In this document: positions 4,563 to 4,914 of the stretch, in pieces
Numbering within the stretch: the first letter of the stretch is position 1
Layout: each line of letters opens with the position of its first letter
Origin: a virus
DNA: 18,713 nt
Reading direction: 5' to 3' (one strand)
UHGV virus genome: UHGV-0067992
Position numbers and translations under genes: made by a program
Notes under the pieces: model-generated
What the model was told of the DNA's origin: nothing
Seen by the model: the letters and a program-made list of their open reading frames with translations, nothing else
Databases searched by the model: none

Positions 4563-4877
4563 TTATCTGTTACCTGATAATTGTCTGAACAGGCGATCTT
4601 TTTGTGATTTGGCGTAATGATTATCCCATTCGCAATCAAGGTAACTTAATTCTTCATTTAACCAGTCATCTATATTGTCTTTCAGGCGAAGGAGCAAGGT
4701 TGGTGTTAATGCTCCGGATATAATACTGAGAGTTGCAGTAGTGAGAGCTCCATACGGTTCAGCCTGAATGGCCTTTACTGCTTCGTGTTCTTGCGGGAGG
4801 AGTAAAAGGCATTCCGATTTTACCCGCTCATTTATGGCTTGCAGGCATAAATCATAATTATGTTGATCGTTATGCAT
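4563..4877 (-). CDS. Hypothetical protein, 104 aa, unknown function; convergent partner of the 330-aa ORF
   Basis: ATG preceded on the minus strand by GAGGA about 7 nt upstream; stop lies 6 nt from the stop of the 3564-4556 ORF; low GC. Confidence 0.55.
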   Translation of the reverse strand: MHNDQHNYDLCLQAINERVKSECLLLLPQEHEAVKAIQAEPYGALTTATLSIISGALTPTLLLRLKDNIDDWLNEELSYLDCEWDNHYAKSQKDRLFRQLSGNR

Positions 4878-4890
4878 GGTTAATCCTCTA

Positions 4891-4914
4891 CTGAAATTGT
4901 CAGATATATTTCAG
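4891..4914. promoter_or_regulatory. Perfect 7-bp inverted repeat CTGAAAT-N10-ATTTCAG in the leader of the reverse 104-aa gene (candidate operator)
   Basis: Read directly; located 14-37 nt upstream of the minus-strand start codon. Confidence 0.3.

Follow-up and report, generated by a model that had tools for sequence, protein, structure and literature searches.

How is a small gene expressed when it lies on the opposite strand within the late operon of a prophage, and what does the palindrome in its leader stand for? Both questions are raised by the UHGV virus genome UHGV-0067992, of which we analyzed a stretch of 18,713 nucleotides (the window). Judged from the gene order given by Pfam, the window is the late region of an Escherichia coli lambdoid (Stx-type) prophage. 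A gene for a protein of 104 amino acids (aa) occupies positions 4563-4877 of the minus strand, convergent with a plus-strand open reading frame (ORF) of 330 aa, and a gap of 128 bp (4878-5005) separates it from the endolysin gene.

A first-pass annotation had described the reverse gene and its neighbor as a two-gene cassette and had reasoned that the 104-aa gene needs its own promoter in the gap. It also took a perfect inverted repeat in the leader for the binding site of a dimeric regulator, with autoregulation as a possibility. The physical description was borne out. The ORF with its ATG start is confirmed by the sequence and the ORF list, the endolysin start at 5006 confirms the length of the gap, and the gene has its own ribosome-binding site (AGAGGA at 4889-4884 of the minus strand, 6 nt before the ATG). 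CTGAAAT (4891-4897), a spacer of 10 nt and ATTTCAG (4908-4914) do form a perfect 7-bp inverted repeat.

The interpretation that we reach is a different one. Homology with a covariance model shows the gap to be a diverged copy of a widespread promoter-leader element. We consider it reasonably probable that the 104-aa gene is the cargo of a reverse moron, that the gap is its diverged promoter-plus-leader module, and that the repeat is a weak form of the second hairpin of this module and not an operator.

The promoter-leader element and its copy in the window

We scanned IMG/VR with a pattern consisting of TCAGCC plus the hairpin, which returned at least 120 loci (L146-L265; loci are cited by L numbers throughout). 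From the IMG/VR matches listed, we took 78 element-bearing loci, and locus counts in the following refer to these. Most of the matches listed share the arrangement ...AATATCAGG-TGTTAC...CCCTGGT-TAWGKT-N7-TCAGCC-[CGUCAGUGG UGGGA CACUGGCG]-CACUCA-N6-9-[CAGAGG GAUGGCUGAUUA CCUCUG]-AUAAGGAA-N-AUG. The element thus defined is about 140 nt long and comprises a predicted promoter, a two-hairpin leader and a Shine-Dalgarno (SD) sequence. The 73 cargo proteins encoded behind it fall into 20 BLASTP clusters (median length 82 aa), and Pfam searches with ten sampled cargos gave one significant family, DUF1883. Large ORFs of the other strand flank the unit to its left and right at 59 of the 78 loci, so that it typically sits antisense within an operon for tail, terminase or lysis genes of a temperate enterobacterial phage.

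Named phages carry the element as well. It precedes gp23 of HK022 (L266 13980-14069), annotated as 'srb protein; moron gene product', and gp25 of ES18 (L267), a 'possible moron' that is convergent with a DUF1327 gene; further copies are found in HK633, mEp043, mEp213 and SPN3UB. In HK022 (L266 2440-2475) the element starts right after a hairpin resembling a bidirectional terminator (GCCACCCGAAGGTGGC flanked by A7), and gp23 is followed by a terminator of its own; the window copy has neither.

The element is unannotated in RefSeq and in 224 E. coli genomes, Rfam has no match at the window leader or at the canonical HK022 copy, and a search for its motif strings found no prior description in the searchable literature. 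The promoter-leader module appears to be undescribed, and it appears to be mobile.

A covariance model, R1, was built from 39 canonical sequences without the leaders of the 104-aa gene. R1 matches the window at 4957-4874 of the minus strand over its full length (model positions 1-81 of 81) with 43 bits and an E-value of 1.4e-11, the only match in the window below E 0.01. For comparison, the scores are 94.6 bits for HK022, 81.7 for ES18, 74.4 for the copy before a 98-aa cargo (L012), 48.1 for L096, 46.3 for the copy before a 91-aa cargo (L010), 44.1 for the O104:H4 allele of the 104-aa gene, 35.8 for L093, and 34-35 for the sister alleles.

Both hairpins are conserved in the manner of RNA structures. 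Covariation was tested on the 39 canonical copies, again with the lineage of the 104-aa gene excluded. Hairpin 1 has 99.4% of its cells paired, one pair being UA in 26 copies, CG in 8 and UG in 3, and another being U·G in the majority (28) versus C-G in 11. Hairpin 2 is 84.6% paired, and one of its pairs occurs as AU (17), GU (13), GC (4) and CG (1). The covariation score was reached by none of 500 shuffles, and slid controls were 30-51% paired. Because the many G·U pairs would turn into A·C mismatches if the other strand were transcribed, we read the structures on the sense RNA of the cargo, and transcription would therefore start upstream of hairpin 1. We regard this comparative RNA-structure evidence as supportive, not conclusive.

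In the window, hairpin 1 is CGCCAG-N10-CUGGCG (4949-4928 of the minus strand) followed by U5 (4927-4923); it has a folding energy of -9.5 kcal/mol and keeps 6 of the 8 pairs of the model stem, CGYCAGYG...CRCTGGCG. The GAUGGCUGA motif (4911-4919, minus strand), which forms the hairpin-2 loop in canonical copies, is complementary to UCAGCC at 4955-4950. This motif is near-invariant in 48 aligned leaders, and its closing helix is part of the minimum free energy (MFE) structure of 4 of 5 leaders. Both sides of the possible pseudoknot helix UCAGCC/GGCUGA are invariant, so the data neither favor nor disfavor it. R1 aligns CUGAAA...UUUCAG with model hairpin 2 and pairs all six positions, which places the repeat (CUGAAAU-N10-AUUUCAG, 4891-4914 of the minus strand) where the conserved leader has its second hairpin. 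The window version of this hairpin is weak and lineage-specific, and it differs from the model: it lacks the GAGG/CCUC stem with the GAUGGCUGAUUA loop, the loop is a different one, and GAUGGCUGA is shifted 5'.

The part of the element upstream of hairpin 1 contains promoter-like signals. On the minus strand of 5120-4878, the top sigma-70 site by position weight matrix (PWM) has the candidate -10 hexamer TATGTT (4962-4967, 8.6 bits). PWM and family alignment together also point to a weak -35, TTTATC (4990-4985), and to a conserved upstream motif, TATCAGG (4998-4992). TTTATC-N17-TATGTT ranks in the top 0.04% of the window by PWM, and it is the best site in most cargo types too. Exactly 7 nt past the -10-like hexamer lies TCAGCC (4950-4955), invariant in 58 of 58 unique copies, with the predicted start inside it at about 4955-4953. 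Counted from the T of TCAGCC, positions -12 to -7 of the 58 copies read T(51) A(56) W G K T(53). In the alignment, TAWGKT at 7 nt before TCAGCC is the pattern of a -10 hexamer with a putative start inside TCAGCC. Further upstream, the family has CCCTGG (-19 to -14), a weak -35 (TGTTAC) and a conserved TG-N9-CAGG (-51 to -37). This CTG-N9-CAG motif was considered as a LexA box and rejected, since a LexA box needs N10 between CTG and CAG and the spacing of N9 does not fit.

In the window, positions -53 to -51 of the element coincide with the start codon of the endolysin. Homologues that precede a holin or HNH gene instead of an endolysin gene (L093, L096) keep CCCTGG-T-TATGGT (or TACGGT)-N7-CAGCC, and they also keep the hairpin and the GATGGCTGA motif. 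Because the upstream block is kept by homologues that do not adjoin the endolysin, we assign it to the reverse gene. As DNA, the predicted -35 and the upstream motif overlap the ribosome-binding region and start codon of the endolysin (4985-5008), and these divergent signals share 25 bp.

The promoter of the 104-aa gene is likely TTTATC (4990-4985)/TATGTT (4967-4962), with transcription predicted to start near 4955. The PWM score alone is compatible with chance, and our case for this promoter is therefore built on the conservation of its position in different contexts. A poor -35 combined with a conserved upstream motif suggests low constitutive activity or dependence on a factor. The first-pass annotation could find no convincing sigma-70 promoter, and we agree: no site in the gap matches 9 of the 12 consensus positions. 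Its view that the gene needs a promoter of its own there is supported in part, by a conserved TATGTT -10, a weak TTTATC -35 and a structured leader that accompany the gene also where its upstream neighbor is another one than the endolysin, but the promoter so predicted is weak.

The 104-aa gene, its convergent partner and the insertion slot

The 104-aa gene is a real gene that belongs to a small enterobacterial prophage family. We conclude this from the ratio of nonsynonymous to synonymous divergence between allele pairs (dN/dS 0.22-0.56 at a dS of about 0.3-0.57) and from the AlphaFold2 (AF2) model, which predicts from the single sequence a small all-helical protein, a confident five-helix bundle (pLDDT 86). 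Intact copies of the ORF are present in 97 of 5,426 complete E. coli genomes and also in the Stx2 phages 86 and 12E129, and an exhaustive HMMER scan of 1.84 billion protein cluster representatives found 16 representatives of the family. Its GC content (40.6%) is below that of the holin gene (54.2%), the endolysin gene (51.1%) and the window (49.2%). The protein belongs to phrog_1853 (E 8e-44, function label unknown). It has no match in Pfam, NCBIfam or PADLOC, and in PHROG it matches only families of unknown function; a fold search with the model gave no informative neighbor, and species-representative genomes scanned with the protein alignment contained no relative. Both cassette proteins match no defence family of PADLOC-DB 2.0 at E-values up to 0.1, a library that predates the Tai proteins. 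In the SD sequence AGAGGA (4884-4889, minus strand), GAGGA is retained in all close alleles and aligns with the AAGGA SD of the conserved element. A minus-strand ORF of 79 aa (4880-5119) is in a different frame, overlaps the endolysin start and was treated as spurious.

The convergent partner (3564-4556, plus strand) is a fusion, a three-part mosaic according to PHROG matches and the partner alignment. It begins with DUF1327/YdfR (aa 1-100, Pfam), continues with a middle segment and ends with a part that we call module X (about 4091-4556); in other places module X is a protein by itself, 185-217 aa long. It is to the first 100 aa of this neighbor that the YdfR label applies, and not to the 104-aa gene. 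PGAP calls relatives of the 330-aa ORF truncated YdfR pseudogenes; the long ORFs are intact (268 aa in O104:H4, 330 aa in the window). AF2 gave a modest model of module X (pLDDT 73) with no informative fold match, and module X has no match in Pfam, NCBIfam or PADLOC.

Module X is inherited together with the 104-aa gene. Homologues of the 104-aa gene at 48% (L096), 38% (L093, L094) and 29% identity (L100) have module X, whole or as a remnant, for their convergent neighbor, and at about 49% identity L097 has a module X remnant of only 65 aa. At some of these loci the pair lies upstream of the holin and adjoins an HNH gene or Q, not between holin and endolysin. One locus, L088, has module X alone. 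The proposal of a two-gene cassette is therefore supported, in the sense of a co-inherited convergent pair that persists down to 29% identity with a single exception, KY180. In L096, a HicA/HicB pair (5195-5833) lies between Q and the cassette.

Between YdfR or holin and the endolysin lies a hot spot, a slot which in different prophages is taken up by no fewer than five unrelated small genes of the reverse strand (PHROGs 1853, 2572, 2411, 18136 and 25324) behind the same upstream block; pairwise BLASTP among the different reverse genes in the slot gave no similarity, and on this basis their common ancestry was rejected. Prophages with a short YdfR have the endolysin directly after YdfR and no reverse gene. 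Homology to the window resumes there at about 4927-4953, and the YdfR stop codon corresponds to 4953-4955 of the window. Examples of this slot upstream of the endolysin are, besides 4878-5005 of the window, L010 878-1153, L012 855-1151, L050, L032 and L091. Three cargo types (104-aa, 91-aa and 98-aa) share the full block TTTATC-N17-TATGTT-N7-TCAGCC followed by a GC hairpin, while in types B and C the promoter-like part is kept and the hairpins have diverged, undetected by R1. The window is itself recombinant across the start codon of the 104-aa gene: its ORF belongs to the B1-56 type (about 98% identical; compared with the L001 and L004 loci), and its leader is almost the same as that of the O104:H4 type, although the O104:H4 ORF is only 86.5% identical to that of the window. 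In strain A34, a Panacea-domain protein is encoded after the endolysin (L008 2942-3328).

The plus strand of the window carries, in this order, genes for a NanS-like esterase, a DUF1378 protein, a class II holin, the 330-aa protein, the endolysin, an Rz-like protein and a cold-shock protein (csp), followed by terminase, portal and head genes. The class II holin (3344-3559, Pfam Phage_holin_2_1) belongs to the late lysis operon, and the endolysin R (5006-5539) matches Pfam Phage_lysozyme. Holin, YdfR-X ORF, endolysin and Rz are all on the plus strand, so that the 104-aa gene is an opposite-strand interruption of a co-directional operon. No plus-strand promoter was found in 4557-5005, and late transcripts must cross the 104-aa gene antisense before they reach the endolysin. 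The stop codons of the 330-aa ORF and the 104-aa gene are convergent and 6 nt apart. The nearest terminator-like site downstream of the 104-aa gene is at 4093-4130 (minus-strand site 4117-4093, hairpin plus T8). It reads A8-ACGCCGC-N15-GCGGCGT-T4, is terminator-like on both strands, and lies within the 330-aa ORF exactly at the module X junction.

Other observations concern the region downstream of the lysis genes. Downstream of Rz, 6250-6635 contains a cspA-type thermoregulator 5' untranslated region (UTR; Rfam RF01766, 112.8 bits) and then a gene for a 70-aa cold-shock protein, an arrangement that resembles cspI in Qin. A second reverse-strand gene (7607-8032, minus strand) encodes a DUF1398 protein of 141 aa and is followed by a GC-rich inverted repeat, GTCCGGC...GCCGGAC (7570-7598). 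A CTGAAAT-N13-ATTTCAG repeat (7751-7777) lies inside the DUF1398 gene. R1 found nothing significant upstream of this gene (nearest match 7983-8014, E 7.6).

The inverted repeat and rival explanations

In the first-pass annotation the repeat was taken for an operator at which a dimeric regulator, perhaps a cassette protein, binds the DNA, and the 104-aa gene might thereby be autoregulated in the lysogen. The palindrome is indeed perfect, has 7-bp arms with centers 17 bp apart and lies close to the gene start, and it is overlapped by a weak alternative promoter, TTTCCT-N18-GACAAT (-10 at 4901-4896, 5.8 bits). This promoter was rejected, as the mRNA would start at or inside the conserved SD and the spacer is 19-20 nt in sister alleles. 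Moreover, the repeat does not exceed chance expectation. Perfect 7-bp repeats with a spacer of 0-20 nt number 46 in the window (nested repeats counted) versus about 24 expected, and 15% of random 128-mers of the same composition contain at least one. The heptamer CTGAAAT is present in 13 copies versus 3.4 expected from dinucleotide shuffles, which is probably a codon effect (CTG and AAA codons are frequent); its abundance makes palindromes built from this word likelier than the shuffles indicate. Nor are the arms conserved. Three leader classes serve the 104-aa gene, and the perfect repeat is found only in class 1 (the window and O104:H4-type copies). In the other two the proximal arm reads either ATTCCAG, the distal arm then having one A more, or ATTCCCG; both changes are uncompensated, and these leaders fold with 0.0 kcal/mol at this place. 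In the distant homologues, at 29-48% identity, the repeat is absent. It is located some 40-65 nt downstream from the predicted start and not over the core promoter, the family has an RNA hairpin with G·U pairs at the corresponding position, and domain libraries and the fold search revealed no helix-turn-helix or other DNA-binding domain in either cassette protein. An operator at this site is thus very improbable, and autoregulation by a cassette protein is unsupported. A function-free repeat, present by chance or as a relic in a lineage where only the promoter, hairpin 1 and the SD matter, is a more serious contender, which we hold to be rather unlikely. It would agree with the probability of such a repeat (P ~0.15 per 128-nt leader), with a folding energy of only -3.5 kcal/mol here and no fold in two other leader classes that serve intact alleles, and with the different histories of leader (O104:H4-like) and ORF (B1-56-like). 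It does not explain why the repeat sits exactly at the hairpin-2 position of the family, with all six positions paired by the covariance model, or why it stacks, in the MFE structure of the window leader, on a UCCU/AGGA pairing that would occlude the SD. The MFE structures of other leaders have the UCAGCC/GGCUGA helix instead, and the z-scores of leader folding are unremarkable (-0.1 to -1.9). Since the repeat is weak and lost in sister alleles, we see in it a marginal form of hairpin 2 that can be dispensed with and whose stem is altogether different.

Other explanations concern hairpin 1 and the strand on which the structures act. Hairpin 1 with its U5 (4949-4923) might be an intrinsic terminator of the minus strand, which would either insulate the gene from upstream antisense transcription, in which case the real promoter would lie downstream of hairpin 1, or attenuate the gene's own transcript. 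All alleles of the 104-aa gene do have a GC-rich stem followed by TTTTT or TTTTA, and the form in sister alleles, with an 8-bp stem and a 5-nt loop, is that of a textbook terminator. The likeness is confined to this lineage, however, and the same hairpin is followed by CACTCA, TAAAC or GGAGG and not by a U-run in the canonical element and other cargo types. The 46 nt between the U-run and the ATG contain no acceptable promoter, and the location of the hairpin directly past the -10-like hexamer throughout the family fits a 5'-terminal stem-loop. We therefore consider a terminator improbable. It is more improbable still, to the point of being nearly negligible, that the conserved structures serve the plus-strand late mRNA, for example in processing or stabilizing the endolysin message. 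The late transcript certainly crosses the region, and the element abuts the endolysin start with its -35 region overlapping, as DNA, the endolysin ribosome-binding site. On the plus strand, however, the U·G that is commonest at one hairpin-1 pair (28 of 39) and the many G·U pairs of hairpin 2 would be A·C mismatches, and the element adjoins tail, terminase, holin and HNH genes as well.

Several observations also weigh against a reverse moron with its own promoter-plus-leader module. The TTTATC/TATGTT promoter is a weak prediction that matches 7 of 12 consensus positions, and a site of similar score is expected, by our estimate, about 0.4 times by chance in such a region. Hairpin 1 and its U5 could terminate transcripts from this very promoter. 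Helix variation is small, so that the covariation comes from few pairs, in sequences that are related to one another. Of the three leader classes in the gene's own lineage, two have an unstable hairpin 2 or none at all, and the repeat may lack function here. The 6 nt between the two convergent stop codons hold no terminator, where a textbook moron has one. Finally, KY180 has a 104-aa homologue without module X, the sole exception among the homologues examined.

Relation to known systems and biological meaning

Morons have been described in lambdoid phages (Juhala et al., 2000, as cited in PMC3594210). The 104-aa unit resembles them as extra DNA between late genes that are adjacent in relatives, with a deviating base composition (GC lower than in the neighboring genes) and predicted expression signals of its own; a terminator of its own directly downstream is missing. 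With HK022 gp23 and ES18 gp25 it shares the upstream element, which is present there in canonical form and diverged in the window, as the R1 scores indicate. It differs from both in that the cargo is unrelated, the site is the lysis cassette and not the tail genes, no terminator follows directly, and hairpin 2 is replaced by the weak AU-rich repeat.

The closest architectural parallel is taiEcA/atiEcA of phi80, a non-contiguous operon demonstrated by experiment, in which a reverse defence gene sits in the Q-dependent late operon and is linked to a counter-defence gene on the late strand (PMC11364771). The lysogen produces TaiEcA, and induction shuts this production off (PMC11364771). In the window, too, a reverse gene interrupts the late operon, and a late-strand partner (here module X) travels with it. 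TaiEcA is a 26-kDa protein and the 104-aa protein has 12 kDa; the likeness is one of architecture, and no sequence relationship is expected. By analogy, the 104-aa gene is a reverse moron in a non-contiguous-operon arrangement, that is, of a known kind. Such an arrangement also implies that the operon transcript overlaps the reverse gene and that both regulate each other in dependence on RNase III, which for the 104-aa gene would be a prediction.

Other comparisons bear on the leader and the partner. Stem-loops at the 5' end, such as that of the ompA 5' UTR, stabilize mRNA, and the window leader is similar in having a stable hairpin a few nt from its (predicted) 5' end. In T4-type phages, repeated copies of promoter-early stem-loop (PeSL) cassettes flank ORFs in hyperplastic regions (PMC2839356, PMC4122927). 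Like these, the present element is a short conserved module of a sigma-70-type promoter and stem-loop that is reused before many unrelated small ORFs, and it is a plausible recombination handle. Unlike them, it occurs as a single copy per locus studied and not as flanking repeats, its hosts are temperate siphoviruses, its cargo is antisense to the operon, and two RNA hairpins plus SD make up a full 5' UTR; the sequences are unrelated, and the comparison is an analogy only. For YdfR (DUF1327) of the Qin prophage, binding to RNase E's catalytic domain and co-purification with RNA have been reported (PMC13232886). The 330-aa partner begins with DUF1327, and ES18 pairs a DUF1327 gene with an element-bearing reverse moron. 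DUF1327 is not a general partner, however, and was rejected as an obligate one, since it is adjacent at only 13 of the 78 element loci among the matches listed.

Together, these comparisons suggest how the moron unit might work. On the minus strand, the order would be TATCAGG/-35, -10, start in TCAGCC, hairpin 1, GAUGGCUGA, hairpin 2, SD and ATG. A promoter recognized by host sigma-70 would give low, independent expression from the prophage, and the 5' hairpins would act on mRNA stability or translation and not in the manner of an operator. In the lytic phase, late transcription driven by Q would run antisense across the 104-aa gene, silencing it and expressing the partner.

As a broader proposal, which we advance tentatively and rate as possible rather than probable, the gap would be one copy of a mobile 'moron expression platform' of temperate enterobacterial siphoviruses that drives dozens of unrelated small antisense prophage genes and doubles as a recombination handle. 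In that case the RNA hairpins would form a new family of cis-regulatory RNAs, and the element could be a beacon for accessory genes expressed from prophages and for the late-strand genes that go with them, among these defence/counter-defence pairs of the Tai/Ati type, with 104-aa/module X as one such two-gene system. It would also be the lambdoid counterpart of the PeSL shuffling cassettes of T4-type phages.

A 104-aa gene with a palindrome would be ordinary by itself, and the interesting outcome is the conserved promoter-leader module, which HK022, ES18, Stx-type prophages and many contigs of uncultured phages have in common. If this module is a common expression unit, it offers a sequence handle with which to list accessory genes expressed from prophages, which are candidates for exclusion, defence and counter-defence. 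It would also make non-contiguous-operon control testable in the lysis cassette of pathogenic E. coli prophages, for example those of O104:H4.

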